Part shown: piece by piece, positions 3,001-26,277 of the stretch
Layout: every line of letters starts with the position of its first letter
How positions within the stretch are numbered: the first letter of the stretch is position 1
NCBI GenBank assembly: GCA_902805565.1
Contig: CADCTP010000212.1
Span: 1-63,554 of the forward strand
Length of the DNA stretch: 63,554 nucleotides
Origin: an uncultured Mycobacteriales bacterium
GTDB taxonomy: Bacteria; Actinomycetota; Actinomycetes; Mycobacteriales; CADCTP01
Direction: 5' to 3'
Translations under genes and position numbers: made by a program
Notes under the pieces: generated by a model
What the model saw: only the letters and a program-made list of their open reading frames with translations
Told to the model about the DNA's origin: nothing
Databases searched by the model: none

Positions 3001-3164
3001 TCCTGGTCTCGTCCCGGGTCGGCGCGGCGTTCGACATCTCCCTGTCCCCGCGCGACGTGCTCGTCGCGCACACCGTCTCCGCGCTGGCCGAACTGGTCGA
3101 GGACAAGATCCTGGGCGAATTGGAACGTCTCGCCCTGGATGACGGCACCGACCAGGAACTCTGA
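1..3164 (+). CDS. NRPS subunit, 5' end cut by the window edge. The visible part is one module: DCL-type condensation, adenylation, thiolation, plus an acidic C-terminal tail of about 25 aa.
   Basis: The frame is open from nt 3 and begins [16 protein letters not shown], the linker/start of a C domain that normally follows an E domain. Motifs seen: HHVLLDGWS (about nt 401); A-core motifs [58 protein letters not shown]; carrier motif LGGDSI (Ser codon 2988-2990). Stop TGA at 3162-3164. Confidence 0.95.
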
Positions 3165-3174: not shown

Positions 3175-6100
3175 ATGTCGTCATCGCGAGAGAGCCGGAT
3201 CGCGGGCCTGCCGGCGGAGCTGCGTGAGCAGCTGCGGCGCCGGCTCGCCGGTCGGACCGCCGCCGCCGCCATCCCGCGGGCGGACCGCACCGGCCCGCTG
3301 CCGCTGTCGTTCCCGCAGCAGCGGCTGTGGTTCCTGGACCAGTTCCAGCCGGGCGGGGCCGAGTACAACAGCGCCGTCGCGCTGCGGCTGCTGGGCCCGC
3401 TCGACGTCGCGGCCCTGACCGGCGCGCTGCGGGAGCTGCGCGCCCGGCACGAGTCGCTGCGGACCACCGTCGAGGAGGTGGACGGCCACGGGGTGCAGGT
3501 CGTGCACCCGGCCGAGGACACCGGGCTGCCGGTGGTCGACCTCGGCGGCGCCGGCCCGGAGGCGCTGGACCGGCTGCTGGCGGAGGAGTACGCCCGGCCG
3601 TTCGACCTCGGCCGCGGACCGCTGTTCCGGGCCACGCTGGTCCGGCTGGCCGACGACGAGCACGTGCTGCTGCTGTGCGCGCACCACATCGTCACCGACG
3701 GCTGGTCGATGGGGGTGCTGGTCGAGGAGCTGGGCCTGCTCCACGACGCCGCCGCGCGGGGGACCGACGCGGCGCTGCCGCCGCTGCCCCTGCAGTACGC
3801 CGACTTCGCGGTCTGGCAGCGTCGGCGGCTCTCCGGGCCGGTCCTGGACGAGCAGCTCGCGTACTGGACCGAGCGGCTGGCCGGGGTGGCCCCGCTCGAC
3901 CTGCCCACCGACCGCCCCCGCCCGGCCGTACGGACCTCGGCCGGCGCGGTGCACCAGTTCCCGATCCCGGCCGAGGTCGCGGCCGGGCTGCGGGCGCTCG
4001 CCCGGGCGCACGGGACCACCCTGTTCACCGCGCTCCTCGCCGCCAGCAAGGTGCTGCTGGCCCGGTACGCCGGCCAGGACGACGTGGCCGTCGGCACCGT
4101 CACCTCCGGCCGGGACCGGCCCGAGCTGGACCGGCTGGTCGGCTTCTTCGTCCGGACCGTGGTGCTGCGCTCCACGGTCGACCAGCGGCAGACCTTCGGG
4201 GAGTTCCTCGCGGCCGTGCGGGACACGTCCCTGGACGCCTTCGCGCACGACGAGGTGCCGCTCGAGCGGCTCGTCGACGCGCTGCGGCTGGAGCGCGACC
4301 CCGGCCGGCAGCCGCTGTTCGACGTGATGGTGCTGATGGGGGGTGCGCAGCGGACCGGCCGCGCCTTCTCCGGCCTGCGGGTCGAGGACGTCCCGGTCCG
4401 CCGGCACGCGGCCGACTTCGACCTGACCCTGGACTTCCAGGAGACCGGCGAGGAGCTGTCCGGCGCGCTGGAGTACAGCACCGACCTGTTCGACGCGGCG
4501 ACGGTCGAGCGGATGGCCGGGCACCTGCTGGTGCTGCTGCGCGGCATCACCGCCGGGCCGGACCGGCCGCTGGCGGAGCTCCCGCTGCTCGACGCGGCGG
4601 AGCGCCAGCAGCTGCTGGTGGACTGGAACGACACCGGCCTGGAGGTCCCGGACGCGACGTTCGGCGAGCTGTTCGAGGCGCAGGCGCGGCGGACCCCGGA
4701 GGCGGGCGCGCTGGTCTTCCAGGACACGGTGCTGACCTACGCCGAGCTGAACGCCCGCGCGAACCGGCTGGCCCGCCGCCTGGTCGAGCTCGGCGCCGGG
4801 CCGGAGCGGGTGGTCGCGCTGGCCCTGCCGCGGACGGCCGAGATGGTGGTGGCCATCCTGGCGACGGTCAAGGCCGGCGCCGCGTACCTGCCGGTGGACC
4901 CCGGCCACCCGGCCGAGCGGATCGGGTTCCTGCTCCGGGACACCGCCCCGGCGGTGGTGGTCACCGGCGCCGGTTCCCCGCCGGTCCCGGCACCGGCCGG
5001 CGCGGCCGTGCTGCCCCTGGACGACCCCGCGGTGGCGGCGGCGGTCCGGGACCTGCCGGCCGGGGACCTGACCGACGCCGACCGGCTCGCCCCGCTGACC
5101 TCCGCCAACCCGGCGTACCTCATCTACACCTCCGGCTCCACCGGCCGGCCCAAGGGCGTGGTGGTCTCCCACCGCAACCTGGTGAACCTCGTCCACGACC
5201 ACCGGCAGGAGTCGGCCCCGGCCGGCGGGCAGGGCCTGCGGATGGCGTTGACGGCCGCGTTCTCCTTCGACTCCTCCCTGCTCGGGATGGTGTTCCTGGC
5301 CGGCGGCCACGAGGTGCACGTCCTCGACGACGCCGTCCGCACCGACCCGGAGGCGTTGCTCGACTACGTCGCCGACCGCCGCATCGACGTGGTCAACGTG
5401 GTGCCGTCCTACGTCCGGCAGCTCCTGCTGGCCGGGCTGCTGGCCGAGGGGCGGCACCGGCCGCGCCGGCTGCTGCTGGGCGGCGAGGCCATCGGGGAGA
5501 CGCTGCACGCGGAGCTGACCGCCGCCGCGGACGTGGCGGTCTTCAACCTCTACGGCCCGACGGAGTGCACGGTCGACTCGGTCTGGCACCGCCTGCGGGC
5601 GGGCGAGCGGCCGCTCATCGGGCGGCCGGGGCGCAACCTGCGGGCGTACGTGCTCGACGCCCGGCTGCGGCCGGTGCCGGTGGGGGTCCTCGGTGAGCTC
5701 TACCTCGCCGGTGAGCAGGTCGCCCGGGGCTACCTGAACCGCCCGGGGCTGACCGCGGACCGGTTCGTGGCCGACCCGTTCGGCCCGCCCGGGACCCGGC
5801 TGTACCGGACCGGGGACCTGGTGCGCCGGACCGCCGACGGCCGGCTGGAGTTCTCCGGCCGGGCCGACGACCAGGTGAAGATCCGCGGCTTCCGGGTGGA
5901 GCCGGGCGAGATCGAGGCGGCGCTGACCGCCCAGCCGGGGGTCGCCGGGGCGGCCGTGGTGGCCCGGGCGGACGGCGGCCACGCGCGCCTGGTCGCGTAC
6001 GTGGTGCCGGCGGCCGGAGCCGCGCCGGCCGGCCCGGAGTTGCGGGAGGCGCTGCGCCGCACGCTGCCCGACCACATGCTGCCCTCGGCCTTCGTGACGC

Positions 6101-7848
6101 TGGAGACGCTGCCCCGCACCCCGAGCGGCAAGGTCGACCGGCGGGCGCTGCCCGCCCCGGACGCCGCCCCGGAGCCGGGGTCCGCCTACGTCGCCCCGCG
6201 CACGCCCGTCGAGCGCGACCTGGCCGCGGTCTGGGCCGAGGTGCTCGGCGTGCAGCGGGTCGGCGTCGAGGACAACTTCTTCTCCCTCGGCGGCGACTCG
6301 ATCCTCAGCATCCAGGTGGTGTCCCGGGCCCGGAAGGCCGGCTACCGGCTGACCTCGAAGGACATCTTCCTGCACCAGACGGTCGGCCAACTCGGCACCG
6401 CCGTACGGACCGGGACGGGCCCGGTGGCGGCCCACCGGGAACCGGCCGGCCCGGCCCCGCTGAGCCCCATCCAGCGCTGGTTCCTGGCCACCCACGGCCC
6501 GCAGCCGCACTTCACCATGTCCACCCTGGTGGAGCTGGCGCCGGACATCGACCCGGACGTCCTGGCCACGGCCCTGGACGCGGTGGTCGCCCACCACGAC
6601 GCGCTGCGCCTGCGGCTGTCGGAGGTGGCCGGCGAGTGGCGGCAGCAGGTGGCGGCGGAGCCGCCGACCGGGCTGCTGCGCCGGCACGACCTGTCCGCGG
6701 TCGCCGAGGCCGACCGCCCGGCCGCCATCGAGGCCGCCGCCGCGGCGGCGCGCTCCGGGCTCGACCTGCGCGCCGGCGCGCTGCTGGCCGCGGCGCTGTT
6801 CGGGCTCGGCGCCGGCCGGGGCGCGCGGCTGCTGGTCATCGCCCACCACGCCGTCGTCGACGGGGTCTCCTGGCGGATCCTGCTGGAGGACCTGGAGACC
6901 GCGTACCGGCAGGCCGCCGCCGGCGGGCCGGTGCGGCTGGACCCGGTCGGCACGCCGTTCGTCGGGTGGGCGCGGGCGCTGACCGAGCACGTCCGCTCCG
7001 GCGCCTTCGACGCCGACCTGCCGTACTGGCAGCAGGCGTCCGACCCGGCCGCGGCCGTCCTGCCGGTCGACCGGGACGGCGTCCCCACCGGCGGCTCCAC
7101 CCGGACGGTGACCGTCCGGCTCGGCCGGGCCGAGACCGACGCGCTGCTGCACCGGGTCCCGGACGCGTACCAGACCCAGGTCAACGACGTGCTGCTCAGC
7201 GCGCTGGGCCGGACGCTGGCCGAGTGGACCGGGCGCCGGCGGGTGCTGGTCGCGCTGGAGGGCCACGGCCGGGAGGAGATCCTCGACGGGGTCGACCTGT
7301 CCCGCACGGTCGGCTGGTTCACCAGCCAGTTCCCGGTCGGCCTCGACCTGCCGGACGGCGGCTGGGGGACCACGCTCAAGGCGGTCAAGGAGCAGCTGCG
7401 GGCGGTGCCGCACCGCGGGCTCAGCTACGAGGCCCTGCGCTACCTCGGCGCGCCGGGCTCGCCGGCCGCGGCGCTGGCCGGCGACCCGCGGCCCGGGGTG
7501 TCCTTCAACTACCACGGGCAGTGGGACGCGGCCGCGGCCGCGGACGGCATGTACCGGGCCCGGCTGGACGGCGCCGGCCCGGAGGTGGCGCCGGACCAGC
7601 CGGCCAGCTACCTGCTCGACGTCGCCGGCGTGGTGCACGGCGGCGAGCTGGAGCTGACCTGGTTCTACCGCGACCAGGTGCACGACGAGGCCACGGTGCG
7701 GCGGCTGGCCGAGCGGATGGTCCGGGCGCTGGCCGAGATCGTCGAGCACTGCGCGCGGCCCGGCGCCGGTGGCCGGACGCCCTCGGACTTCCCGCTGGCG
7801 AAGCTGGACCAGGCCGGCGTCGACCGGCTGGTCGGCACCGGCCGCGAG
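3175..7848 (+). other. NRPS module 1: C(LCL)-A-T-E (approximate borders)
   Basis: [14 protein letters not shown] and HHIVTDGWS (LCL type). A motifs include AFSFDSS and [12 protein letters not shown] motif [10 protein letters not shown] motifs [35 protein letters not shown]. Confidence 0.85.
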
Positions 7849-10800
7849 GTGGAGGACGTCTACCCGCTGACCCCGCTGCAGGCCGGCATGCTGTTCCACA
7901 GCCTGGTCGACGAGGGCTCCGGGGTCTACGTCAACCAGATCCGGATGGTCCTGGACGGGGTGGGCGACCCCCGGGCGCTGGGCGAGGCATGGCAGCGGAC
8001 CGTGGACCGGACGCCGGCCCTGCGCACCTCGGTGGTCTGGCAGGGCGTCGCCGAGCCGCTGCAGGTCGTGCACCGCCGCGCCACCGTGCCGGTCACCCAC
8101 CACGACTGGCGCGAGCTGGCCGAGCCCGAGCGGGAGCGGGAGCTGGCCCGGCTGCTGGCCGCCGACCGCGCGGCCGGGCTGGATCTCGGCACCGCGCCGC
8201 TGCTGCGGCTGGCGGTGCTGCGGCTGACCGGCGACCGGGTGCTCGTGGTCTGGACCTCGCACCACCTGGTGCAGGACGGCTGGAGCCTGGCGCAGCTGTT
8301 CGTCGAGATCGGCGAGCACTACGCCGCGATCGTCGGCGGCCGGCCCCCGCGGCTGTCCCCGCGCCGGCCGTTCCGCGACTACCTGCAGTGGCTGGCCGAG
8401 CAGGACGACCGGGACGCCGAGGCGTACTGGCGGAAGGTGCTCGCCGGTCTCGGCGCGCCCACCCCGCTGCCGTACGACCGGCCGCCGCGCCAGGCGCACC
8501 GCAGCGAGTCCTCCGAGACCCTCCGGGCCGGGCTCACCGCCGAGGAGTCCGCCCGGCTGCACCGGGTGGCCCGCGGCAACGGGCTGACCCTGAACACCGT
8601 CGTGCAGGGCGCCTGGGCGCTGTTGCTGTCCCGCTACAGCGGCGAGTCCGACGTCGTGTTCGGCACCACGGTCTCCGGCCGGCCGGCGGAGCTGCCCGGC
8701 GTCGAGTCGATGATCGGCATGTTCATCAACACGGTGCCGACCCGGGTGCGGGTGGACCGCGGCGAGGACCTGCTGCCGTGGCTGCGCCGGCTGCAGGCCG
8801 AGCAGAGCGACGCGCGCCGGTACGACTTCGTCTCGCTGGCCCAGCTGCAGGGCTGGACCGACCTGCCGGGCGGCCGGGCGCTGGCCGACAGCATGCTGGT
8901 GTTCGAGAACTATCCGTTCGACGAGGAGGCCGCGGCGGCCACCGGCCTGCGGATCGCGGAGGTCGCGGGGGAGGACCCGACGAACTTCCCGCTCAGCGTC
9001 CGGGCCTTCCTGGCCGACCGGCTGACCTTCGACATCGGGCACGACCCGCGGCTGTTCGACCCGGGCACCGTACGGGCGCTGGCCGACCGGCTCTGCCTGC
9101 TGCTGCGGGAGATCGCCGCCGACCCGCAGCGGCCGCTGTCCCGGCTGCCGTGGCTGTCGGCCGCCGAACGCCGGCAGGTGCTGCCGGAGTGGGCCGGGCC
9201 GGGGCCGGAGCCGACCGCGACCCTGCCCGGGCTGTTCGCCGCCCGGGCCGCCGCCGACCCGGACGCGGTGGCGCTGACCGACGGCGCGGACCGGTGGACG
9301 TACGCGGCCCTGAACGCCCGGGCCAACCGGCTGGCGCACCGGCTGATCGAGGCCGGCGCCGGTCCGGAGCGGTACGTCGCGCTGGCGCTGCCCCGCTCCG
9401 CCGACCAGGTGGTGGCGGTGCTGGCCGTGCTCAAGTCCGGCGCGGCGTACCTGCCGCTGGACCCGGCCCACCCGGCCGAGCGGATCGCCCACGTGCTGGC
9501 GGACGCGGCGCCGGTGCTGGTGCTGTCCACCACCGACCTGCGCACGCGGCTGTCCGGCGTGGCCGGCGACCGGCCGTGGTGGGCGCTGGACGACCCGGAG
9601 CTCGCCGCGGACCTGGCCGGGCGGCGGGACGACGACCCGGCCGACGCGGACCGCACGGCCCCGCTGACCCCGGCCAGCCCGGCGTACACGATCTACACCT
9701 CGGGCTCGACCGGCCGGCCGAAGGGCGTGGTCGTCACGCACGCGAACGTGGTGCGGCTGTTCACCGCGACCCGGGAGCAGTTCGGCTTCGGCCCGGACGA
9801 CGTGTGGACGCTGTTCCACTCGTACGCCTTCGACTTCTCGGTCTGGGAGATCTGGGGCCCGCTGCTGCACGGCGGGCGGCTGGTCGTGGTGCCGCACGCG
9901 GTGTCCCGCTCGCCGCGGGAGTTCCTCCGGCTGCTGGTCGAGGAGCGGGTGACGGTGCTCAACCAGACCCCGTCCGCCTTCCACCAGCTGGTGCGGGCCG
10001 ACGTCGAGGCGCCCGAGCTCGGCGACGGGCTGGCCCTGCGGTACGTCGTCTTCGGCGGCGAGGCGCTGGACCTGTGGCGGCTGGAGGAGTGGTACGCCTG
10101 GCACCCCGACACCGCGCCGGTGCTGGTCAACATGTACGGGATCACCGAGACCACCGTGCACGTCACCCAGGTCGCGCTGGACCGGGCCGGCGCCGCCGCG
10201 GCGACCGGCAGCGCCATCGGCGTCGCGCTGCCCGACCTGCGGGTCTACGTGCTGGACGCCGACCTGCGGCCGGTCCCGCCCGGGGTGGCCGGCGAGATGT
10301 ACGTGGCCGGCGCCGGGCTCGCCCGCGGCTACCTCAACCGCCCCGGGCTCACGGCGGAGCGGTTCGTCGCCGACCCGTTCGGCACGCCGGGGACCCGGAT
10401 GTACCGCACCGGTGACCTCGCCCGGTGGACCGCGCCGGCCGGCCGGCCGGACATGGAGCTGGAGTACCTCGGCCGGGCCGACTCCCAGGTCAAGATCCGC
10501 GGGTTCCGCATCGAGCTCGGCGAGATCGAGGCGGTGCTGGCGGCCCGCCCGGAGCTGGCCCAGGTCGCCGTGCTCGACCGGGAGGACCAGCCCGGGGTGC
10601 GGCGGCTGGTCGCCTACCTGGTGCCGGCGCCCGGCCGGCAGCTGCCGCCGGGGGACGAGCTGCGGGCGCTGGCCGCCCGGTCGCTGCCGGACTACATGGT
10701 GCCCTCGGCGTTCGTGCCGCTGGACCGGCTCCCGCTGAACGCGAACGGCAAGCTGGACCGCCGGGCGCTGCCCGCCCCGGAGACAGGCGTCGGCGACGGT

Positions 10801-13800
10801 GCCGGGCACGTCCCGGTCCGCACCGAGGCCGAGCGGCTGGTCGCCCAGGTCTGGTCGGAGGTGCTCGGCGTCGAGCGGGTCGGCGCGGAGGACGACTTCT
10901 TCGCCCTCGGCGGCGACTCGATCCTCAGCATCCGGGTCGCGTCCCGGCTCCGGACGGCGCTCGGCGTGGACGTCTCGCCGCTCGCCGTGTTCTCCGAGCC
11001 CACCGTGGCCGGGCTGGCCGCCGCGCTGTCCGCGGCGGCGGAGCCGGCCGGGGACGCCCCCGTCCTGCGCCCCGTCCCCCGGGACGGCGCGCTGCCGGCG
11101 TCCTTCGCCCAGCAGCGGCTGTGGTTCCTCGACCAGTTCGAGCCGGGCAGCACCGAGTACGTCGCCCCGTTCGCGCTGCGGCTGCGCGGCGAGCTCGACC
11201 CGGGCGCGCTGGCCGCCGCCCTCACCGCGCTGGTCGCCCGGCACGAGTCGCTGCGGACCACGTTCGAGTCGGCGGACGGCCGGGCGGTGCAGGTCGTGCA
11301 CCCGCCGGCCGAGGTGCCGCTGCCGGTGCTGGACCTCACCGCGGTCCCGGAGCCGGAGCGGCCGGCCGCGCTGGAGCGGGCGCTGGCCGAGGAGGTCGGG
11401 CGGCCGTTCGACCTGCGGACCGGGCCGCTGCTGCGGGCCCGGCTGGTCCGGGCGGCCGCCGACGAGCACGTCCTGGTCCTCACGGCGCACCACATCGTCA
11501 CCGACGGCTGGTCCGTCGGCGTCATCAGCGGCGAGCTGGCCGCCGGCTACGCGGCGGCGCTGGCCGGGGAGCGGGCGGAGCTGCCGGCGCTGCCGGTGCA
11601 GTACGCGGACTTCGCGGTGTGGCAGCGGGAGCTGCTGGCCACGCCGGTGCTCGGTGAGCAGTTGGCGTACTGGCGGGAGCGGCTGGCCGGGCTGGAGCCG
11701 CTGGAGCTGCCGACGGACCGGCCCCGGCCGGCGGTGCAGACCAAGAACGGCGCCCTGCTGCGGACGGTGTTCCCGGCCGGGCTGGTGACCCGGCTGCGGG
11801 AGCTGGGCCGGGACCGGGACGCGACGCTGTTCGTCACCCTGGTCGCGGCCTGCCAGGTGCTGCTGGCCCGGTGGTCCGGGCAGGACGACGTGGCGGTCGG
11901 GACCGTGACCTCCGGCCGGGACCGGCCGGAGCTGGAGCGGCTGGTCGGCATGTTCGTCAACACCCTGGTGCTGCGCTCCACGGTGGACGCCGGGGCGAGC
12001 TTCCGGGACCTGCTGCCCCGGGTGCGGGGGACCGTGCTGGACGCCTTCGCCCACCAGGACGTGCAGTTCGAGAAGGTGGTGGACGAGCTGCAGCCGGCCC
12101 GGGACACCTCCCGCCCGCCGCTGTTCCAGGCCATGGTGGCGCTGCACAACCTGGGCACCACCGTGCCGGACCTGCCCGGCCTGCGGGTCGAGGAGGTGGC
12201 GCTGTCCACGGCGACCGCGAGCTTCGAGCTCAACTTCGACTTCGTCGAGCAGGGCGACGAGCTGGCCGCGCTCGTGCAGTACAACACCGACCTGTTCGAC
12301 CCGGCGACGATCGAGCGGATGGTCGGGCACCTGCGGGTCCTGCTGGAGCAGGTCGCGGCCGAGCCGGACCGGCCGGTCGGCGACATCCCGCTGCTGGGTG
12401 CGGACGAGCGGCGACTGCTGGCGGAGTGGGACGGCCCGGCGCTCGACGTCCCGGCCGCGACCTTCGGCGAGCTGTTCGAGGAGCAGGTGCGGCGCACCCC
12501 GGATGCCGACGCGCTGGTCTTCCAGGACACCGTGCTGACGTACGCCGAGCTGAACGCCCGGGCCAACCGGCTGGCGCGGCACCTGGTCACGCTGGGCGTC
12601 GGGCCGGAGCGGGTGGTCGCCCTCACGCTGCCCCGCTCGGCCGAGATGGTCGTGGCGATCCTGGCCACCACCAAGGCCGGCGGCGCCTACCTGCCGATCG
12701 ACCCGACCATGCCCGCCGACCGGATCGCGTTCCTGCTGGGCGACGCGGTACCGCCGGCGGTGGTCACCCTCGGCGACAGCCGGCAGGTCGACGAGGCCCT
12801 CCCGCCCGGCACGGCCTGCGTACGGCTGGACGACCCCGGCACCCGGGCCGCGCTGGAGTGGTGCTCGGACGCCGACCTCACCGACGCCGACCGGACCGCC
12901 CCGCTGCGGCCCGACAACGCCGTCTACGTGATCTACACCTCCGGCTCGACCGGCCGGCCGAAGGGCGTGCTGATCGAGCACAGCGGCCTGGTCAACCTGC
13001 TCGCCGACCACCGCTCGCTGCTGCCGACCCGGGTCCCGGGCGAGGACCGCACCCGGGTCGCGCTGACCGCGGCGTTCTCCTTCGACACCTCGCTGGAGGG
13101 CCTGCTGTTCCTGCTCGGCGGGCACGAGCTGCACGTGATCGACGAGGACGTGCGGCTGGACCCGGCCGCCCTGGTCGACTACGTGGCCGAGCGCCGGATC
13201 GATCTGCTCGACCTGACCCCGTCCTTCGCCCAGCAGATGGTCCCGGCCGGCCTGCTCACCGACCCCCGGCACCGGCCGCGGATCGTGATGCTCGGCGGCG
13301 AGGGGGTCGGCGAGCGGCTGTGGCGGGAGATGCGGGACGCGCCCGACACCGAGGTGCACAACTACTACGGGCCCACCGAGTTCACCGTGGACGCCGTCTA
13401 CTGCGGACTCGCCGAGCACGACCGGCCGATCATCGGCCACCCCGGCTCGAACGTGCGGGCGTACCTGCTGGACGCGCAGCTGCGGCCGGTGCCGATCGGG
13501 GTCCGCGGGGAGCTCTACCTGGCCGGGGTCCAGCTGGCCCGCGGCTACCTGCACCGCCCGGGGCTGACCGCGGAGCGCTTCGTCGCCGACCCGTTCGGCG
13601 AGCCCGGGTCGCGGATGTACCGCACCGGTGACGTCGCCCGGTGGACCCCGTCCAACGGCCGGCCGCCCCGGTACGCCGGCCGGCCGGCCGGGTTCCGGCC
13701 CCCCACCGGGGTGCTGGAGTACCTCGGCCGGGCCGACGAGCAGGTCAAGATCCGCGGCTTCCGGATCGAGCCGGGCGAGATCGAGGCCGCCCTGCTGGCG

Positions 13801-16800
13801 CACCCCGAGGTGGACGAGGCCGTCGTGCTGCCCCGCGACGACGCCACCGGTCTGACCCGGCTGGTGGCCTACCTGGTGCCGGCCGCCGGTGCGCTCCCGG
13901 ACACCACCGGCCTGCGGGCCTGGCTCAAGCGCAGCCTGCCCGACTACATGGTGCCGGCCGCCTTCGTGCAGCTGGACCGGATCCCGGCCACCACCAGCGG
14001 CAAGGTCGACCGCCAGGCGCTGCTGCGGATGGAGGTGCTGACCGAGTCCGCGGCCCGGTACGTGGCCCCGCGCACCCCGGTGGAGGCCGAGCTGGCCCGG
14101 ATCTGGGCCGGCGTGCTCGCCGTCGACCAGGTCGGCGTGGACGACAACTTCTTCGAGCTGGGCGGCGACTCGATCCTCAGCATCCAGCTGGTCTCCCGGG
14201 CCCGGCAGGCCGGCCTGCGGGTGACGTCCAAGGACGTCTTCGTCCACCAGACCGTCGCCGAGCTCGCCGCGGTGGCGCGGACGGAGGCCGCGGCCGCCCC
14301 GCTCGGGCCCGAGCCGGTCGGCCCGGCGCCGCTGACCCCGATCCAGCACTGGTTCGTCGGCAGCGGGCAGGCCGACCCGCAGCACTACACGATGTCCGTG
14401 CTGGTCGAGCTGGACGGGAACGTCGACCCGCCGGCGCTGGACGCCGCGGTCGGCGCGCTGGTGGGGCGGCACGACGCCCTGCGCAGCCGCTTCTCGGTGG
14501 TCGACGGGCGGTGGACGCAGGACGTGGCGCCGGCCGAGCCGGCCGGGCTGTTCTCGGTGCGGGACCTGTCCGCGCTGGACGCCGCGGACCGGGCCGCGGC
14601 GATGGAGGAGGCGGCGCTGGCCGCGCAGACCGGCCTGGACATCGAGCGCGGGCCGCTGCTGCGGGCGGTGCTGTTCCTGCTCGGCCCGGGCCGGGCGCCC
14701 CAGCTGTTCCTCACCGTCCACCACCTCGTCGTCGACGGGGTGTCGTGGCGGATCCTGCTGGAGGACCTGGAGACCGCGTACGCCCGGCTCGCGGCCGGGC
14801 AGCCGGTGGAGCTCCCGCCGGCCACCACCGGGTACGGCCAGTGGGCCCGGCTGCTGGCCGAGCACGTGCTGGCCGGCCGGCTCGACGGCGACCTCCCGTA
14901 CTGGACCGAGGTCGCCGGCACCGCGGTGCCGGCGCTCCCGGTCGACCGGGCCGGGCGGAACACGGTCGGCTCCGGCCGGACGGTCTCGGTCCGGCTGGAG
15001 GAGGCCGAGACCGACGCGCTGCTGCACGCCGTGCCGCGGGCGTACCGCAACCAGATCAACGACGTGCTGCTGGCCGCGCTGGGCCGGACGCTGGCCCGGT
15101 GGACCGGCGGCGAGCGCGTGCTGGTCGGCCTGGAGGGGCACGGCCGGGAGGAGATCCTCGACCGGGTCGACCTGTCCCGCACCGTCGGCTGGTTCACCAG
15201 CGAGTTCCCGCTGGCGCTGAGCGTGCGCCCGGACGCCGGCTGGGGCGAGGTGCTGAAGTCGGTCAAGGAGCAGTTGCGGGCGGTGCCGCACCGGGGGATC
15301 AGCTACGGCGCGCTGCGCCACCTGGCCGCCGGCGACGAGCGGACCCGGGCGCTGCGGGAGCACCCGGAGCCCCAGGTCAGCCTCAACTACCACGGCCGGT
15401 GGGACGTGGGCGGGCCGGACGGCGACCAGGCCGGCGGCGGGCTGTTCCGCGGCTGGGGCGACGGCATCGGCCAGGACGCCGCGGCCGGCAGCGAGCGCGG
15501 CCACCTGCTGGAGGTCACCGGCATGGTGACCGACGGCCGGCTGGAGCTGGGCTGGACCTACTCGGCCGCGGTGCACGACGAGGCCACCGTGCGGCGGCTG
15601 GCCGAGGAGGTCGCCGAGTCGCTGCGGGAGATCGTGCGGCACTGCGCCGAGCCCGGCGTCGGCGGCTGCACGCCGTCGGACTTCCCGCTGGCCCGGCTCA
15701 CCCAGCACGAGCTGGACTCGGCCGTGCGGGCCGGCCGGGACGTCGAGGACGTCTACCCGCTGACCCCGCTGCAGTCCGGGATGCTGTTCCACACGCTGCT
15801 CGGCACGTCCGGGGCGTACTTCGACCAGGTGTCGTTCCGGCTGGCCGGGGTGCGGGACCCGGCGGCGCTGGCGACGGCCTGGCAGCGGGTGGTGGACCGC
15901 ACGCCGGTGCTGCGCAGCCGGGTGGTCTGGGAGGGCGTCGACGAGCCGGTGCAGGTGGTGCACCGGGACGTCACCGTGCCGGTGACCCGGCACGACTGGC
16001 GGGACCTGCCGGAGCCCGAGCAGCAGGAGCGGCTGCGCCGGCTGCTGGCCGAGGACCGGGCGGCCGGGGTGGACCTGACCGTCGCCCCGCTGATGCGGCT
16101 GGCGATCGGCCGGCTGTCCGACGACGACGTGCTGCTGGTCTGGAGCTCGCACCACGTGCTGCTGGACGGGTGGAGCACGGCGGCCGTGTTCGCCGAGGTC
16201 TGCGAGCAGTACGCGGCGATCGTGGCCGGTGGCCGGCCCGAGCTGCCGGCCCGCCGGCCGTTCCGCGACTACCTGCAGTGGCTCGCCGAGCAGGACGGCC
16301 GCCAGGTCGAGGAGCACTGGCGGCAGGTGCTGGCCGGCGTCACCGCGCCGACCCCGCTGCCGTACGACCGGCAGCCGCAGGACGCCCACGGCAGCGAGTC
16401 CTCCGCCACGGAGTCGCTGCGGCTGCCGGCCGAGGTGACGGCCCGGCTGCAGCGGGCCGCCCGGCAGGCCGGCCTGACCGTGAACACGCTGGTCCAGGGC
16501 GCCTGGGCGCTGCTGCTGTCCCGCTACAGCGGGGAGCCGGAGGTCATCTTCGGCAGCACGGTGTCCGGCCGGCCGGCCGAGCTGCCCGGCGTCGAGTCGA
16601 TGGTGGGCATGTTCATCAACACCCTGCCGACCCGGGTCCGGATCGAGGCCGACCGGCCGCTCGCCGGCTGGCTGCGCGACCTGCAGGCCGCGGAGACCGA
16701 GTCCCGCCGGGTCGACTTCGTCCCGCTGGCCCAGCTCCAGGCCTGGAGCGGGCTGCCCGCCGGCACCGCCCTGTTCGACAGCATCCTGGTCTTCGAGAAC

Positions 16801-19800
16801 TATCCCTTCGACGAGAACTCGACCGCCGGCGCCGGGCTGCGGATCCGGGACGTGGAGTCGGTCGACCCGACGAACCTCCCGCTCAGCGTCAGCGCGTACC
16901 TGGCCGACCGGCTCGGCGTGGACCTCGCCTACGACCCGCGGCTGTTCGACGCGGCGACCGTACGGCGGCTGGGCGGGCACCTGCTGGCGCTGCTGGCCGG
17001 CATGGCCGACGGCCTGGACCGGCCGGTGGGCGGGCTGGAGCTGCTCGGCGCCGAGGAGCGCCAGCAGCTGCTGGTGGACTGGAACGACACCGCGCTGGCG
17101 GTGCCGGCCGCGACGTTCGGCGAGCTGTTCGAGGCCCAGGTGCGGCGGACCCCGGACGCGACCGCGCTGGTCGCCGGGGACACCACCCTGACCTACGCCG
17201 GGCTGAACGCGCGGGCGAACCGGCTGGCCCGGCACCTGGCCGCCCTCGGTGCCGGCCCGGAACGGGTCGTGGCGTCGGCGCTGCCGCGGACGGTCGGGAT
17301 GATCGAGGCGATGCTGGCGGTGGCGAAGGCCGGGGCGGTGCACCTGCCGGTCGACCCGGCGCTGCCGGCGGACCGGATCGCGTTCGTGCTGGCCGACGCG
17401 GCGCCGGCGCTGGTGCTCACCGCCGGGGCCGGCGACGGGCCGGTGCTGCCGGCCGGCGCGGCCGTGCTCCGGCTGGCCGACCCGGGGGTCCGGGCCGCGC
17501 TGGAGCGCCACCCGGACACCGACCTGACCGACGCCGACCGGACCGGCCCGCTGCGGCCGGACAACGCGGCGTACGTGATCTACACCTCCGGCTCCACCGG
17601 CCGGCCGAAGGGGGTGGCGGTCGAGCACCGGAGCCTGGCGAACCTGCTGGCCAACCACCGGGCCGACCTGGTGCCCGCCGGCGGCGACCGGCTGCGGGTG
17701 GCGCTGACCGCCTCCTTCTCCTTCGACACCTCGTGGGAGGGGCCGCTGCTGATGGCCGGCGGGCACGAGCTGCACCTCATCGACGACGAGGTCCGCGCCG
17801 ACCCGCCCGCGCTGGCCGGCTACGTGGCCGGGCACCGGATCGACTTCCTCGACGTCACCCCGTCGTACCTGCGGCAGCTGCTGCCGGCCGGCCTGCTCAC
17901 CGACGAGCGGCACCGGCCGCGGGTGCTGATGGTCGGCGGCGAGCCGCTGGACGCGGACCTGTGGGCGGAGCTGGCCGCGGCGCCGGACACCGTCGCGCAC
18001 AACTTCTACGGCCCGACCGAGTGCACGGTGGACGCGCTGTCCGCCCGGGTGGCCGGGACGTCCCGGCCGTCGGTCGGCCGGCCGCTGCGCAACGTCCGGG
18101 CGTACGTGCTGGACGCCGCGCTGCGGCCGGTGCCGGTCGGTGTGGTCGGCGAGCTGCACCTGGCCGGGGACCAGGTGGCCCGCGGCTACCTGAACCGGCC
18201 GGGGCTGACGGCCGACCGGTTCGTGGCCGACCCGTTCGGCCCCCCGGGGTCGCGGATGTACCGCACCGGCGACCTGGTGCGCTGGACGGCCGAGGGCCGG
18301 CTGGAGTTCGCCGGCCGGGCCGACGAGCAGGTCAAGATCCGCGGGTTCCGGATCGAGCCGGGCGAGATCGAGATGGCCCTGCTCGGTCACCCGGACCTGG
18401 CCCGCGCGGTCGTGGTCGCCCGGGACGACGACGGCACCGGTCACCGGCGGCTGGCGGCGTACCTGGTGCCGGCGGAGGGGGCGGCGGTCCCCGGGGCGGC
18501 GGAGCTGCGCGAGCTGCTGGGCCGGAGCCTGCCCGAGCACATGGTGCCGGCCACGTTCACCGCGCTGGACGCGCTGCCGCTGAGCTCCAGCGGCAAGGTG
18601 GACCGGCGCGCGCTGCCGGCCCCGGAGGCCGGGCCGCGCGCGGAGTCCGCGTACGTCCCGCCGCGGACCGAGGCGGAACGCCAGGTGGCCCGGATCTGGG
18701 CCGAGGTGCTCGGGGTGGAGCGGGTCGGGGCCGAGGACAACTTCTTCGAGGCCGGCGGCGACTCGATCCTCAGCATCCGGCTGGTGTCCCGGCTGCGCAC
18801 CGAGCTGGGCGCCGACGTCTCGCCCCGGGCCGTGTTCAGCACCCCGACCGTGGCCGACCTGGCCCGGTCCGTCCCGGTCGACGGCGTGGCCGGGGCGGCG
18901 GCCGCCCCGGCCATCCCGGTCCGGCCGCGGGACGGGCAGCTGCCGATGTCCTTCGCCCAGCAGCGGCTGTGGTTCCTGGCCGAGTTCGAGCCGGACAGCG
19001 CCGAGTACCTGACGCCGACGGCGCTGCGGCTGCGCGGCCGGCTCGACGTGCCGGCGCTGTCGGCCGCGTTCACCGCGCTGGTCGCCCGGCACGAGTCGCT
19101 GCGGACGACGTTCGGGTCGGTCGACGGGCGGGGCGTGCAGCTGGTCGGCGCGCCGTACGAGGTGCGGGTGCCGGTGCTCGACCTGACCGGCACGCCGGAA
19201 TCGGAGCGGGCCGCCGCGCTGGCCGGGGTCCTCGCCGAGGAGACCGGGCGGCCGTTCGACCTGCGGACCGGGCCGCTGCTGCGGGTCCGGCTGGTCCGGC
19301 TCGCGCCGGAGGAGCACGTGCTCACCCTGGTCCTGCACCACATCGTCACCGACGGCTGGTCGATGGGCGTGCTGGCCGACGAGCTCGGCACCCTGTACGC
19401 GGCCGCGCTGGCCGGGGAGCGGGCGGAGCTGCCGGCGTTGCCGGTGCTGCCGGTGCAGTACGCGGACTTCGCGGTGTGGCAGCGGGAGCTGCTGGCCACG
19501 CCCGTGCTCGGCGAGCAGTTGGCGTACTGGCGGGAGCGGCTGGCCGGGCTGGAGCCGCTGGAGCTGCCGACGGACCGGCCCCGGCCGGCGGTGCAGACCA
19601 AGAACGGCGCCGTGCTGCCCTTCACCGTGCCTGCGGACGTCGTCACGCCGCTGCGGGAGCTGGGCCGGCGCCGGGACGCCACGCTGTTCATGACGCTGGT
19701 GGCCGCCTGCCAGTTGCTGTTCGCCCGCTGGTCCGGCCAGGACGACGTGGCGGTGGGGACCGTGACCTCCGGCCGGGACCGACCGGAGCTGGAGCGGCTG

Positions 19801-22800
19801 GTCGGCATGTTCGTCAACACCCTGGTGCTGCGGTCCCGGGTGGACGGCGCGCTGAGCTTCGCCGACCTCCTCGGGCAGGTGCGCGAGACCACGCTGTCCG
19901 CGTTCGACCACCAGGACGTGCAGTTCGAGCGGATCATCGACGAGCTGAACCTCGCTCGGGACACCTCCCGCTCGCCGTTGTTCCAGGCCATGGTGGTGCT
20001 GCAGAACCTCCCGAGCGGGCCGCCCGACTTCGCCGGGCTGGCCGCGGAGGGGGTCGAGCTGCCCGTGGTGGCCGCCGGCGTCGACGTCACGGTCGAGTTC
20101 GCCGAGGTCGACGGAGGCCTGGAGGGCGCGCTGACCTACAACACCGACCTGTTCGACGCCGCCACCGTCGAGCGGATGGCCGGGCACCTGCGGTGCCTGC
20201 TCCGCGGGATCGCCGCCCACCCGGACCGGCCGGTGGGCGAGATCGAGATGCTGGGCGCGGACGAGCGCCGGCAGGTGCTGGTGGACTGGAACGACACCGC
20301 GCTGGACGTGCCGGCCGCGACGTTCGGGGACCTGTTCGAGGCGCAGGTGCGGCGGACCCCGGAGGCGACCGCGCTGGTCTTCCAGGACACCGTGCTGACC
20401 TACGCCGAGCTGAACGCCCGCGCCAACCGGCTGGCCCGGCGCCTGGTCGAGCTCGGGGCGGGGCCGGAGCGGGTGGTCGCGCTGGCCCTGCCGCGATCGG
20501 CCGAGATGGTCGTGGCCATCCTGGCGGCCGTCAAGGCCGGCGCGGCCTACCTGCCGGTGGACTCCGGCTACCCGGCCGAGCGGATCGAGTTCGTCCTCCG
20601 GGACACCGACCCGGTGCTGGTGGTCACCGGCGCGGATCCCCTGCCGGTCCCGCCGCCCGGGGACGCGGCCGTGCTGGACCTGGACGACCCGCGGGTGTCG
20701 GCGGCGGTCCGGGAGCTCCCGGACGGGGACCTGACCGACGCCGACCGGCTCGGCCCGCTCGTCGCGGACAACCCGGCCTACGTCATCTACACCTCCGGCT
20801 CCACCGGCCGGCCGAAGGGTGTGGTGGTCTCCCACCGGAACCTGGTGAACCTCGTCCACGACCACCGGCAGGAGTCCGGCCCGGCGGCCGGGCGGGGCCT
20901 GCGGATCGCGCTGACCGTCGCGTTCTCCTTCGACCCCTCCCTGCTGGGCCTGGTGTTCCTGGCCGGCGGCCACGAGGTGCACGTCGTCGCCGACGCCGTC
21001 CGCACGGACCCGGAGGCGCTGGTCGACTACGTCGTCGACCGCCGCGTCGACGTCGTCATCGTGGTGCCGTCCTACGCCCGGCAGCTCCTGCAGGTCGGGC
21101 TGCTGGCGGATGGGCGGCACCGGCCGCGGAGGGTGCTGGTGGGCGGCGAGGCCATGGGGGAGACGCTGCACGCGGAGCTGACCGCCGCCGCGGATGTCGA
21201 GAGCTACAACGTCTACGGCCCGACGGAGTGCACGGTCACCGCGGTCTGGCACCGCCTCCGGGCGGACGGGCGGCCGCTGATCGGGCGGCCGGGCCGCAAC
21301 CTGCGGGCGTACGTGCTCGACGCCCGGCTGCGGCCGGTGCCGGTGGGGGTCCTCGGTGAGCTCTACATCGCCGGTGACCAGGTCTCCCGGGGCTACCTGA
21401 ACCGGCCGGGGCTGACCGCCGAGCGGTTCGTGGCCGACCTGTCCGGGCCGGCGGGGTCGCGGATGTACCGCACCGGTGACCTGGTGCGGTGGACCGCCGA
21501 CGGGCGGCTGGAGTTCGCCGGCCGGACCGACGACCAGGTGAAGATCCGCGGGTTCCGGGTGGAGCCGGGCGAGATCGCGGCCGCCCTGCTCCGCCGCTCG
21601 GACCTGGCGCAGGCCGTCGTGGTCGCCCGGACCGACCAGGTCGGTCACCACCAGCGGCTGGCCGCGTACGTGGTGCCGGTCGACGGGGCGCCGGAGCCGG
21701 GGACCGCGGAGCTCCGGGAGCTGCTGGCCCGGACCCTGCCCGACCACATGGTGCCCTCGACCTTCACGGTGCTCGAGGCGCTGCCGCTGACCTCCAGCGG
21801 CAAGGTCGACCGGCGGGCCCTGCCGGCCCCGGCGGCCGACCAGCAGCCGGCGTCCGGCCACGTCGGGCCGCGCACGCCGGTGGAGAAGGTGCTGGCCGCC
21901 GTCTGGGCCGACGTCCTCGGCCTGGAGCAGGTCGGCGTGGAGGACACCTTCTTCGCCCTCGGCGGCGACTCGATCCTGAGCCTGCAGGCGGTGTCCCGGG
22001 CCCGGCAGGCCGGCCTGCGCCACACCACCAAGGACCTCTTCGTGCACCAGACGATCGCGGCCCTGGCGCCGGTGGTCGAGGTCGAGGAGGCCGGCGCCGC
22101 CGAGGAGGCGGTCGTCGGGGCGGTCCCGCTGACGCCGATCCAGCACTGGTTCTTCCGGACCCATCGGCGCAACCCGCGGCACTTCACCCAGTCGATGCTG
22201 GTCGAGCTGGCCGACGAGCCGGACGAGGCGGCGCTGCGGGCCGCGCTGGACGCGCTGCTGGCGCACCACGACGCGCTGCGGATGCGCTTCGAGCAGGTCG
22301 ACGGCGAGTGGCGGCAGCACAACGCGCCGGTCGAGCCGGTGCCGGTGCTGGACCGGCAGGACCTGTCCGGGCTGGTCGGGGAGGACGAGCGGCTCGCCGC
22401 GATGGAGAAGATCGCCGACGAGACGCACGCCGGCTTCGACCTGGCGCGGGGGCCGCTGCTCAAGGCGGTCCTGTTCGGGCGGGGCGACCGGCCGCCGATG
22501 CTGTTCCTGGCCGCCCACCACCTGGTGGTCGACGGGGTGTCCTGGCGGATCCTGCTCGACGACCTCGCCACGGCGTACCGGCAGGCGGGCGGGGGCGGGG
22601 CCGTCGACCTCGGGGCCCGGACGACGTCGTTCCGGGACTGGTCCCGGCGGCTGACCGAGCACGTGGCCGCCGGCGGGCTGGACTCCGAGCTGGACCACTG
22701 GGCGACCGCGCTGGACGTGGCGCCGCTGCCGGTGGACCGGCGGGACGGGCCGGCCGGCACCGACACCGTCTCGGTGGGGCTGGACGCCGCGGACACCGAC

Positions 22801-23442
22801 GCCCTGCTCCGCGGCGCCCCGACCGCGTACCGCACCGGAATCAACGACGTGCTGCTGGCCGCGCTGGCCTGGGGGCTGTCGCGGTGGACCGGGCGGGACC
22901 GGGTGTCGCTGGAGCTGGAGGGGCACGGTCGGGAGGACCTCCTCGACGGCGTCGACCTCTCCCGGACCGTCGGCTGGTTCACCTCCAGCTTCCCGGTCGC
23001 GCTGGAGGTGCCGGCGGAGGACCGGCCGGACTGGCGGGCCCTGGTCAAGTCGGTACGCCGCCAGCTGCGCCGGATCCCGCGCAACGGCATCGGGTTCGGC
23101 GCGCTGCGCCACCTCGGCTCGCCGGCGGCCCGGGACCGGTTGCCGGCCGACACGGCCGGGCCGCAGTTGGTCTTCAACTACCTCGGCCAGTGGGACGCCC
23201 GCTCGGCGGAGGCCGCCGACGGGTTCTACCGGGCGGTGCACGGCTCCCTCGGCCAGGACCACGACCCGGCCGAGGAGCCGACCCACCTGCTGGAGGTGTC
23301 CGGCGCGGTCCAGGACGGCCGGCTGGAGTTCTCCTGGACCTACCGGCCCGACCGGCACGACCGCTCCACCGTGGAGTCGGTGGCCGAGGACTTCGCCGCG
23401 GCGCTGCGGCGGATCGCCGAGGACTGCCGGGGGGCCCGGTGA
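3175..23442 (+). CDS. Giant NRPS (about 6755 aa), five modules C-A-T-E / C-A-T / C-A-T-E / C-A-T / C-A-T-E. It has no TE, R or terminal C domain.
   Basis: Uninterrupted 20.3-kb frame. AAGGGAAG Shine-Dalgarno at 3164-3171, just before ATG 3175. The track's ATG 3139 would overlap the upstream gene by 26 nt and has no SD. HHxxxDG motifs at about 3683, 6844 (E), 8259, 11488, 14719 (E), 16150, 19336 and 22516 (E). Five SGSTGRPKG motifs. Five GGDSI carrier serines (6298, 10918, 14170, 18762, 21970). Stop TGA at 23440-23442. Confidence 0.95.
7849..11070 (+). other. NRPS module 2: C(DCL)-A-T (approximate borders). The A pocket reads Thr-like.
   Basis: [16 protein letters not shown] and HHLVQDGWS (DCL type, consistent with the preceding E domain). 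A motifs [34 protein letters not shown] motif FFALGGDSI. Confidence 0.85.
11071..15741 (+). other. NRPS module 3: C(LCL)-A-T-E (approximate borders)
   Basis: [14 protein letters not shown] and [10 protein letters not shown] motifs AFSFDTSLE and [11 protein letters not shown]. An 18-aa insertion precedes [12 protein letters not shown] motif [10 protein letters not shown] motifs [23 protein letters not shown]. Confidence 0.85.
15742..18930 (+). other. NRPS module 4: C(DCL)-A-T (approximate borders)
   Basis: [16 protein letters not shown] and [10 protein letters not shown] motifs SFSFDTSWE and [12 protein letters not shown] motif FFEAGGDSI. Confidence 0.85.
18931..23439 (+). other. NRPS module 5: C(LCL)-A-T-E (approximate borders). 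The E domain is the C-terminus of the protein.
   Basis: [14 protein letters not shown] and [10 protein letters not shown] motifs AFSFDPSLL and [12 protein letters not shown] motif [10 protein letters not shown] motifs [42 protein letters not shown]. The protein then ends ...IAEDCRGAR. Confidence 0.85.
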
Positions 23443-24689
23443 CCGCGGCGACCGTCCCGCTGTCCCGCAACCGGGACTACCGGATCCTCTGGACCAGCCA
23501 GGCGCTGGCCGAGTTCGGCTACAACGCCTCCACGATCGCCTTCCCGCTGCTCGTGCTGGCGCTGACCGGGTCGGCGGCGGCCTCCGGGGCGGTGCTCGGC
23601 ACGATCGCGGCCGCCCGGCTGGTCGCCGGCCTGCCGGCCGGTGCCCTGGTGGACCGGTGGAGCCGGAAGAAGGTGATGCTCGGCTGCGAGGCGGCGCAGG
23701 CGCTGGCCGCCGCCAGCCTGGTGGCGGCCCTGTGGCGGGACGTGGCCTCCGTGCCGCACCTGATCGCGGTGGCCGCCGTGCTCGGGATCTCCGCGGCCCT
23801 GTTCGAGCCGGCCGAGGACGCCTGCCTGCCGGCCCTGGTCCCGGCCGAGCAGCTGTCCACCGCGGTGTCGCTGAACGCCGCGCGCTCCTCGCTCGGCCAG
23901 CTGTCCGGCACCGCGGCGGGCGGGCTGCTGTTCGCCGTCGGCCGGGCGGTCCCGTTCGCGGTGGACGCGGTCACGCACACCCTGGCGTTCGTGGCGCTGT
24001 CCTTCCTGCGGGTGCCGCCGCGGCCGGCGGCGCCCCGGCCGGCCGGCCGGCTGGGCGCGGAGATGGCCGCCGGCGTGCGGTGGGCCTGGCGGCAGCCGGA
24101 GATCCGGGTGACCGCGTTCTGCGCGGTCGTGCTCAACCTGTTCTTCAGCGCCTTCTACATCGTGGTCATCGTGCTGGCCCAGCAGCGCGGGGTGCCGGCC
24201 GGCCAGATCGGCGTGATGGCCGCGATGCTCGGCGCCGGCGGGATCGCCGGGGCGCTGCTCGCGCCGTACCTGCACCGGGTGGTGAGCCCGTACGTGTCGA
24301 TCGCCGGCGTGTTCTGGGTGCTGACCGTGCTGACCGCGGTCTCCGTGCTCGTCCGGGACCCGGTCGCCGTCGGGGCGGTGTTCGCCGGGATGGCCCTGCT
24401 CCCGCCGACCGCGAACACCACGATCGTCACCCGGCAGCTGCTGCTCACCCCGGACGAGCTGCGCGGCCGGCTGAGCGGCGCGGTCGGGCTGGTGGTGGGC
24501 GTCGCCGGCGCGCTCGGGCCGGGGCTCGGCGGCCTGCTGGTGCAGGTCCTCTCCGGCCGCCAGGCGATCGGCGTGTGCGCGGCCGGGATGGCCGTCGTCA
24601 CGGTGCTGGTCACCGTCAGCCCCACCCTGCGCCGCTTCCCCCGCGACCTGGCCTCCCCCGACTCGGGGGTGGCCGTACCCGCGTCCTGA
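23439..24689 (+). CDS. MFS transporter, EntS/DHA3-like exporter (416 aa)
   Basis: GTG 23439 overlaps the NRPS stop (GTGA at 23439-23442). About 12 hydrophobic spans. The loop motif [10 protein letters not shown] is typical of this MFS subgroup. This is the in-frame tail of the composite track ORF 21489..24689. Confidence 0.85.
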
Positions 24690-24736: not shown

Positions 24737-24943
24737 ATGGACGACGACGCCCGGTACGAGGTGCTCCGCAACGACGAGGACCAGTACTCGCTCTGGCTGG
24801 CCGGCCAGGAGGTGCCCGCCGGCTGGCACCAGGTGGGCAAGGAGGGCACCCGGCAGGAGTGCTCGGCCTACGTGGACGAGGTCTGGACCGACATGCGGCC
24901 GCGCAGCCTGCGCGAGCGGATGGACGGCGTGCCCAGCTCCTGA
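24737..24943 (+). CDS. MbtH-like protein (68 aa)
   Basis: GAGAGGAGA SD at 24721-24729, upstream of ATG 24737. NDEDQYSLW...PAGW...EVWTDMRP is the MbtH signature with the three conserved Trp. Confidence 0.9.
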   Translation: MDDDARYEVLRNDEDQYSLWLAGQEVPAGWHQVGKEGTRQECSAYVDEVWTDMRPRSLRERMDGVPSS

Positions 24944-25628: not shown

Positions 25629-25754
25629 CAACGCCCCCTCAGTGCCGCGACCCCTCTCGGCGATCGCCTCGTCCGACCACGCGCACGCGCCGGGGTCCAG
25701 GTCGGCGGGGGCACGGCCGGCCGGACCACGACCTGCGACTGCGCGCAACGGCAC

Positions 25755-25767
25755 GAACGTAACGTTC
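25755..25767. promoter_or_regulatory. 13-bp palindrome GAACGT-A-ACGTTC upstream of the luxR-type gene
   Basis: Perfect 6-1-6 inverted repeat lying 127-139 nt upstream of GTG 25628, in a lower-GC intergenic region. Confidence 0.3.
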
Positions 25768-26277
25768 ACCCGCTTCTTCGACCTCCGTAGTCAGACCCTG
25801 ATGTATCGCGCGCCAACACCCGAATTGGGCGAACTATGGAGATCACCGGACCCGGCACAGCGCTCGGCCGTCGGGCCGAGCCCCGCGTCCGGCGGCGGCA
25901 CCGGGACCTGGTGACCGAGAAGCGCGGTCACCGAACCGCTGCTACGTTCCGGGCCGGAGTCACCCAACGTGACGATGTTGACCGATCGTCGACATCCCGC
26001 GTCGCCTGGCCCGCGCGGTTGAGATTCCCGTCCCGCGCTGGTCGGAAAGGCTGATACTTCCGCCCACACGCCGCCAAGCTGGCAGTTCGCCAGCTCGCCG
26101 ACAAGCTGGCACCGCAGGTAACAGCAAATCCGTCCATCCGCGACACGAACATGAACTAAACGTGTTCTGTATCACGCTTGAGACTCGCTACGGACCGTTG
26201 CAGGTAGCAATCACCGTTGATACCTTTTTCACATCGGGCAAGCGCCCACAAACCCCCACAGAAAGGTTGTGATACCC

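Follow-up and report, generated by a model that had tools for sequence, protein, structure and literature searches.

Architecture of the synthetase locus

This work concerns a gene for a non-ribosomal peptide synthetase (NRPS) of an uncultured Mycobacteriales bacterium and the way in which its peptide may be released. The stretch of DNA analysed, hereafter the window, comprises 63,554 bp with a G+C content of 76% and is one entire contig (CADCTP010000212.1, assembly GCA_902805565.1) of a metagenome-assembled genome (MAG). An open reading frame (ORF) at positions 3175-23442 of the forward strand encodes an NRPS of 6755 aa; its ATG lies at 3175, with GAAGGGAAG just upstream. A motif scan, Pfam and domain mapping by tblastn agreed on the arrangement of its condensation (C), adenylation (A), thiolation (T) and epimerization (E) domains, C-A-T-E/C-A-T/C-A-T-E/C-A-T/C-A-T-E, and thereby confirmed the order proposed previously from the letters of the DNA (the sequence-only reading). 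That earlier reading mentioned neither that the window is a whole contig nor that it opens inside another NRPS gene, of DCL-A-T organization. The features of the two NRPS genes are as follows.

3-3164 (+): 3' part of the preceding NRPS gene, with a DCL-type C domain (6-1298), an A domain (1320-2837), a T domain (2874-3089) and a tail; C-A-T according to Pfam
Module 1 of the 6755-aa NRPS (+): C 3235-4584, A 4612-6147, T 6181-6393, E 6427-7752
Module 2 of the 6755-aa NRPS (+): C 7855-9159, A 9178-10767 (Thr code), T 10801-10959
Module 3 of the 6755-aa NRPS (+): C 11080-12390, A 12415-14019, T 14050-14265, E 14317-15645
Module 4 of the 6755-aa NRPS (+): C 15748-16965, A 17068-18612, T 18646-18864
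Module 5 of the 6755-aa NRPS (+): C 18928-20244, A 20275-21819, T 21850-22074, E 22075-23439
22075-23439 (+): the terminal E domain, last domain of the line, with all E motifs present

The frame of the preceding gene is open from base 3 to its stop at 3164, encodes no release domain and is separated from the ATG of the 6755-aa gene by 11 nt. In pairwise comparisons, the C domain at the contig start was 54-56% identical to the two C domains that follow E domains, versus 32-35% for the three LCL domains. Since this C domain is of the DCL type, an E domain must close the module that precedes the contig start, and the line must continue upstream. The contig begins inside another NRPS gene, which makes the 6755-aa protein no more than the final subunit of a longer line that is cut short. 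The tail of the upstream protein and the N-terminal head of the 6755-aa protein recur together in relatives, and the head is conserved among orthologues as well as in NRPSs of the type found in the cyclofaulknamycin (flk) cluster. We read this tail and head as a putative docking pair, which would make the order collinear, with the upstream subunit acting before the 6755-aa subunit.

The stereochemistry visible on the contig is [D]-L-D-L-D-L-D. Among the A-domain codes, which were derived by hand, the only clear assignment was that of module 2 (DFWNVGMVHK, Thr), and comparison with the A domains of a flk-type NRPS confirmed this Thr domain alone. The codes of modules 3 and 4 (DTEDMG[Y/F]VDK) feature an acidic pocket, which suggests a cationic residue. 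The large gene also displays a periodicity of ~7.8 kb, corresponding to a two-module repeat unit, C-A-T-E-C-A-T; A1 and A5 share 79% protein identity, and the modules reach 91% nucleotide identity over 300 nt. These repeats point to growth of the gene by tandem duplication of the two-module unit, and they are a plausible cause of the contig break inside the NRPS. An exact 44-mer of the first bases of the contig had no match among the JGI metagenome contigs.

The terminal epimerization domain and the 3' border of the cluster

The E domain that closes module 5 looks active, with the motifs PIQHWF (aa 6321), HHLVVDG (6448), EGHGRE (6582), RTVGWFT (6597), PRNGIGF (6635) and FNYLGQ (6667), and the module has no cis thioesterase (TE), reductase (R) or terminal C domain. 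The C-terminus of the NRPS, ...IAEDCRGAR*, lies within the E domain and aligns with ...IVEHCARPG and ...IVRHCAEPG, the ends of the internal E domains before the TPSDFPL linkers. The stop is placed at the E/C junction, and no tail is added past the E domain. A D-residue at the C-terminus is required by TEs of the penicillin-binding-protein (PBP) type (PMC11735501).

Relatives of the locus were gathered as 90 loci from context look-ups and one scan of 185,579 species-representative genomes, using the window's own domains for mapping, and the related loci were viewed over ~10 kb on either side. In the three protein homologue searches, none of the matches listed was longer than ~1.75 times the query, and long NRPS orthologues surfaced only with long queries. 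A set of 15 terminal E domains from related loci showed 53-67% identity (mean ~61%) to the E domain of module 5 (E5) and ~46% to those of modules 1 and 3 (E1 and E3), whereas the mean identities of 73 internal E domains were reversed (50.4% to E1, 48.8% to E3 and 46.0% to E5). The ending ...DCRGxx* is present in most of the 15. Judged by these identities, the terminal E domains are an orthologous group of their own. Because they group apart and most of them share the ...DCRGxx* end, the terminal E domain is best described, on the strength of these alignments, as a conserved specialised end-piece and not as a chance subunit break.

The genes next to this end-piece are shared as well. Homologues of the last module often stop at the same point, e.g. 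...ALRRIARDCRGQSR, and an E domain ending in ...DCRGxx* and followed by an MFS_3 gene was found in at least 13 loci, representing at least five genera (Saccharothrix, Lentzea, Amycolatopsis, Actinosynnema and Streptomyces) in addition to MAGs, with an MbtH gene next in most of them. The loci listed with the shared ending are L003, L004, L007, L008, L009, L011, L012, L014, L015, L018, L038, L048, L061 and L086. The full succession of LCL-A-T-E, stop, MFS_3 and MbtH was present in Saccharothrix coeruleofusca, S. obliqua, Amycolatopsis dendrobii, Streptomyces malaysiensis, S. iranensis, Lentzea sp. HUAS TT2, an Actinosynnema sp. and two MAG or metagenome contigs (L003 and L004). In S. carnea and another Amycolatopsis, the E domain is followed by the MFS gene at the edge of the available sequence, while two Streptomyces loci and L086 have the MbtH gene after the E domain. 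Past MbtH, the genes were mutually unrelated in the nine loci examined (helicase, antiporter, proteases, enolase-family protein, a methyltransferase with a P450, SARP regulators), so that the 3' border of the cluster lies at MbtH and the end of the NRPS is not an internal subunit break. The corresponding part of the window contains the following genes.

23439-24689 (+): MFS_3/MFS_1 transporter, probable exporter; 60-66% identical to its L003/L004 orthologues and at the same position in related loci
24737-24943 (+): MbtH-like protein, A-domain helper (PF03621, E = 3e-21); 79-82% identical to the syntenic L003/L004 orthologues
25023-25769 (-): LuxR/GerE-family regulator (Pfam GerE, E = 4e-14), convergent with the operon
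~28100-29416 (-), 29856-30779 (+) and 53088-53801 (+): generic alpha/beta-hydrolase genes, none of them PF00975

At 23439-23442, the sequence GTGA holds both the NRPS stop and the GTG with which the MFS gene begins, an overlap suggesting that the exporter is translationally coupled to the synthetase. Within the cluster, the MbtH gene is the last one to be conserved. The LuxR/GerE regulator, which had no counterpart after the MbtH gene in the other loci examined, may be cluster-linked. The genes beyond the NRPS were called by codon-position G+C, and all called ORFs between 23.4 and 63.5 kb were searched against Pfam. None of them contained PF00975, NAD_binding_4, PF00144 or a further Condensation domain, and tblastn with a SurE-like protein (a PBP-type TE) and with a type II TE gave no match in any frame of the window. 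The sequence-only reading had described the last E domain as intact, had aligned the stop with the ends of the internal E domains before TPSDFPL, had named an MFS exporter and an MbtH-like protein as the next genes and had found no TE, R, terminal C or beta-lactamase-fold gene in the following 40 kb. All of this held, in the motif scan (all core motifs found), the alignment, the gene calls (23439-24689 and 24737-24943) and the negative Pfam and tblastn searches, respectively.

The remaining genes past the MbtH and LuxR genes include those for a kinase, a SnoaL protein, PhoX, regulators, transporters and an M20 peptidase, and further ones belong to an arsenic-type island or encode a vanadium-chloroperoxidase-like (VCPO-like) protein and an S8 protease. 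A DUF2975 gene (37605-38419, minus strand), ~13 kb past MbtH, adjoins a small Cro/C1-type helix-turn-helix (HTH) gene; such a pair constitutes cppC/cppD in the pentaminomycin cluster (PMC7827011, Table 1), a resemblance that is probably a coincidence. The arsenic-resistance-type island (45516-47842) includes an ArsC-like low-molecular-weight phosphatase, an ArsR regulator and a flavin oxidoreductase. Far from the NRPS, the product of 54272-55888 (minus strand) combines DUF6851 with the second helical-bundle domain of vanadium chloroperoxidase and is possibly a haloperoxidase-like enzyme. The S8 subtilase gene (60094-63552, minus strand) exceeds 1150 codons, and its frame is open to within 2 bases of the right contig end.

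Two other views of the locus were considered and rejected. Several homologues of the upstream gene product have been called as proteins of ~1043-1164 aa, as though the gene encoded a stand-alone C-A-T protein. We rejected this view because the calls P0022, P0026 and P0015 start inside an E domain or linker, and E and DCL are continuous there. The NRPS coding sequence is split across frames in the public assemblies of L001, L002, L003/L005, L089 and L090; the 'stand-alone' C-A-T proteins of such split assemblies, some of which start inside an E domain, are annotation artefacts and could mislead analyses of domain order. A siderophore function was suggested by the EntS-like MFS_3 protein and by the FecCD and Peripla_BP_2 genes after L003. 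It was discarded, as none of the other relatives examined showed such uptake genes; hydroxylase, formyltransferase and catechol genes were likewise absent from the window ORFs searched and from the relatives examined.

Release of the peptide

PBP-type TEs join an L-configured N-terminus to a D-configured C-terminus to give head-to-tail macrolactams; those characterised in vitro include SurE, PenA, Ulm16, FlkO and WolJ (PMC11735501). SurE-like genes of this type, encoding SxxK, YSN and HDG motifs, were identified in six related loci (L010, L013, L068, L075, L087 and L090). In Saccharothrix tamanrassetensis (L013), a SurE-like gene of 422 aa (SITK, YSN, GHDG) is located directly upstream of an A-T initiation module. 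Its product matched SurE (PDB 6KSU/6KSV) with E = 5e-71 over residues 10-416, the C-terminal domain included, and the PBP cyclase Ulm16 (8FEK) with E = 1e-56; the SurE-like proteins of the other five loci carry the same motifs and are 42-49% identical to it. Streptomyces scopuliridis (L068) likewise has a SurE-like gene upstream of its initiation module, and in a Streptosporangiaceae MAG (L087) such a gene (PF00144) directly precedes an E-terminated NRPS with 59% identity to the last 1500 aa of the window NRPS. In Kutzneria sp. CA-103260 (L010, 11753-13275), Amycolatopsis vastitatis (L075, ~4700-6259) and ERZ25039594:contig_15054 (L090, 13724-15061, PF00144), the SurE-like gene lies between orthologues of the window's two NRPS genes. 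In L010 and L075 an MbtH gene comes before it, and in L090 the NRPS after it comprises 6271 aa. The cyclase gene is found at the 5' edge in L013, L068 and flk (PMC8399532) and between the NRPS genes in L010, L075 and L090; to judge from these loci, its position varies within the cluster family.

The closest relative, A. vastitatis, is collinear with the window, with 63.6% and 61.5% identity to the two window proteins; taken together, L075 and L090 matched the upstream protein at 61-64% over 1030-1043 aa and the large protein at 61% over 2318-2608 aa, in the same order. The first NRPS of Lentzea indica (P0241) and that of L013 start with A-T and have no E domain, and the N-terminal residue of the L. 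indica peptide is therefore L, as heterochiral coupling by PBP-type TEs requires (PMC11735501). If this line continues like the window, it would comprise ten modules, with an L N-terminus and a D C-terminus. Farther upstream in L005 (ERZ26871208) there were more NRPS modules only, and none of the related loci yielded a type I TE.

In our assessment, with a probability of about 0.72, the window represents the 3' end of a multi-subunit NRPS cluster whose product is released in trans by a PBP-type TE as a head-to-tail macrolactam. By analogy with the relatives, the cyclase should be encoded off the contig, at the 5' flank of the cluster. The truncated upstream subunit would add an L-residue to a D-ended chain, as its DCL-type C domain implies, and the chain would pass to the 6755-aa subunit via the conserved tail and head. 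This subunit would then add five residues (D-X1, L-Thr, D-X3, L-X4 and D-X5), the terminal E domain epimerizing the T-bound C-terminal residue. A stand-alone SurE-like enzyme would take the D-terminated peptidyl thioester onto its SxxK serine, and attack by the free L-amino terminus would close the macrolactam. The MbtH protein is expected to support the A domains, and the MFS_3 pump to export the product. The ring would contain at least seven residues, and the line ten modules if the L. indica relative continues like the window. We infer the presence of a cyclase in the source genome, the cyclization itself and the substrates other than Thr.

Several points weigh against this trans-release model. 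No cyclase gene was found in the 63.5 kb of the contig by Pfam or tblastn, and direct proof of the enzyme is out of reach, since the upstream NRPS gene runs off the contig. Only 11 nt separate the two NRPS genes, so that the slot occupied by the cyclase gene between the NRPS genes of L010, L075 and L090 is empty here. No single relative, viewed over ~10 kb on either side, spans the distance from cyclase to terminal E domain; the link between a 5' cyclase and the 3' T-E-MFS-MbtH end is thus pieced together from overlapping partial views and the published flk cluster. The nearest relatives are only ~60% identical, and the content of their clusters may differ. A type II TE is also encoded in L004 and in the flk-type locus, which, from sequence, leaves hydrolytic release some probability. 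The sequence-only reading had proposed an off-line SurE-like cyclase encoded upstream and a macrocyclic product: this agreed with the comparative tests on the relatives and, with no cyclase on the contig, stands as a prediction for the organism itself.

A protein that ends in an E domain may instead be an internal subunit, handing its D-ended chain to a subunit that starts with a DCL domain, carries a TE or R domain and is encoded upstream or elsewhere, out of order. E-ended subunits are common at trans E/C junctions, the Bacillus subunits TycA, GrsA and SrfA-A ending in the same way; the window protein stops exactly where the internal E-C linkers start, and the upstream part of the cluster is missing from the contig. 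We nevertheless consider such a handover unlikely. Most related loci end identically and continue with MFS_3, in most cases MbtH, and then unrelated genes, the terminal E domains are a separate orthologous group, and six related loci contain cyclase genes. In the relatives, DCL domains follow E on the same coding stretch, and neither a gene starting with DCL nor a type I TE was seen. The window has no Condensation domain downstream, and its lone DCL domain near a gene start belongs to the truncated upstream gene, whose orthologues follow E. The non-collinear further subunit that the sequence-only reading had kept as its alternative thus found no support in any relative seen. The lack of a release domain could also be without biological meaning, the result of gene decay or of a MAG that is fragmented or mis-assembled, given that the contig breaks inside an NRPS gene and that its modules are as much as 91% identical in nucleotide sequence over 300 nt. 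This is highly improbable, as the 20-kb ORF is uninterrupted with a third-position GC of 0.99, the start of the MFS gene overlaps the NRPS stop, and the stop occupies a position conserved in finished isolate genomes, e.g. those of Streptomyces iranensis and Lentzea sp. HUAS TT2.

Release by hydrolysis, through a type II TE or another alpha/beta hydrolase, would give a linear peptide with a C-terminal D-residue. A PF00975 gene stands directly after MbtH in L004, another is present in the flk-type locus L088, and three alpha/beta-hydrolase genes occur downstream in the window. The window enzymes were rejected as release enzymes, since they are not PF00975, lie 3.2 to 28 kb past the MbtH gene and belong to a region that is not shared among the relatives examined. 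In addition, tblastn with a type II TE protein gave no match in the window, and type II TEs in such clusters are regarded as proofreading enzymes, FlkX having been so interpreted (PMC8399532). Hydrolytic release is accordingly a doubtful explanation for this locus.

There is also a slim chance that the product is a large peptide ring in which D and L residues alternate, provided that the unseen modules keep the pattern and a PBP-type TE closes the ring, or, as a second possibility, that the source genome has no SurE-like gene and the T-E-bound chain is released by an undescribed mechanism. The alternating run visible on the contig covers at least seven residues, [D]-L-D-L(Thr)-D-L-D. Synthetic rings of alternating D and L residues stack into nanotubes.

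Relation to known cyclase-dependent systems

The window NRPS is a truncated new member of a well-known, heavily mined class and adds one uncharacterised line, from an uncultured actinomycete, to those that depend on PBP-type TEs. These enzymes are of practical interest as peptide-cyclizing biocatalysts, and searches for new cyclic peptides make use of their clusters. As the design has been on record since 2018 and the catalogued clusters of this kind exceed 300, the locus raises no new question. The border of ...DCRGxx*, MFS_3 and MbtH, together with the terminal E clade found across at least five actinomycete genera, offers a modest annotation aid, and it allows a fragmented MAG contig to be placed in the class even if it does not carry the cyclase gene.

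Like the window, the lines for surugamide (SurE), pentaminomycin-BE-18257 (cpp; PenA/CppA), ulleungmycin (Ulm16) and desotamide-wollamide (DsaJ/WolJ) have no cis TE. The surugamide, ulleungmycin and desotamide/wollamide lines also end with T-E. Among relatives of the window, the SurE-like proteins show full-length matches to SurE (6KSU) and Ulm16 (8FEK). In contrast to these known clusters, which originate from Streptomyces, the MAG has its nearest relatives among Pseudonocardiaceae; the peptide sequence and length differ, and the window contig carries no cyclase gene. For the cpp NRPSs, an E domain in the last module and the absence of a TE domain have been reported (PMC7827011).

The flk cluster (Streptomyces albus J1074 / S. 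koyangensis) comprises FlkO, an NRPS, MbtH and an NRPS ending with T-E, and encodes a type II TE while lacking one of type I (PMC8399532). Cyclofaulknamycin, the peptide made by this cluster, is cyclic, and FlkO is a PBP-type TE (PMC8399532; PMC11735501). The cluster resembles the window in its two-subunit logic, in the head of its second NRPS (MNQPSSRDDRIAALPAHLREALAQRLAG), in the start of that protein with C-A-T-E and then C-A(Thr)-T, in its T-E end without a TE and in the presence of MbtH and MFS_3 genes. The flk-type locus L088 is arranged as NRPS, MbtH, NRPS ending with T-E, TauD, MFS_3, P450, HTH and type II TE. The differences are also considerable: the proteins are only 46-50% identical, the first A domain is of another type, and flk makes a hexapeptide, whereas the window line has at least seven modules. 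The flk MbtH gene lies between the NRPS genes, while that of the window follows the MFS gene, and the TauD, P450 and type II TE genes of flk are absent from the window.

The SNaPP survey catalogued 316 biosynthetic gene clusters with an NRPS and a PBP-like cyclase, in 86 families and with 131 predicted new peptides (PMC8610019). Many of the predicted rings have 10 residues, and many of the peptides combine Orn or a basic residue with Thr, for example pNP-43 of Lechevalieria fradiae, with Orn4-Thr5-End6 (PMC8610019). The uncharacterised clusters catalogued in this survey have the same genomic signature as the window.

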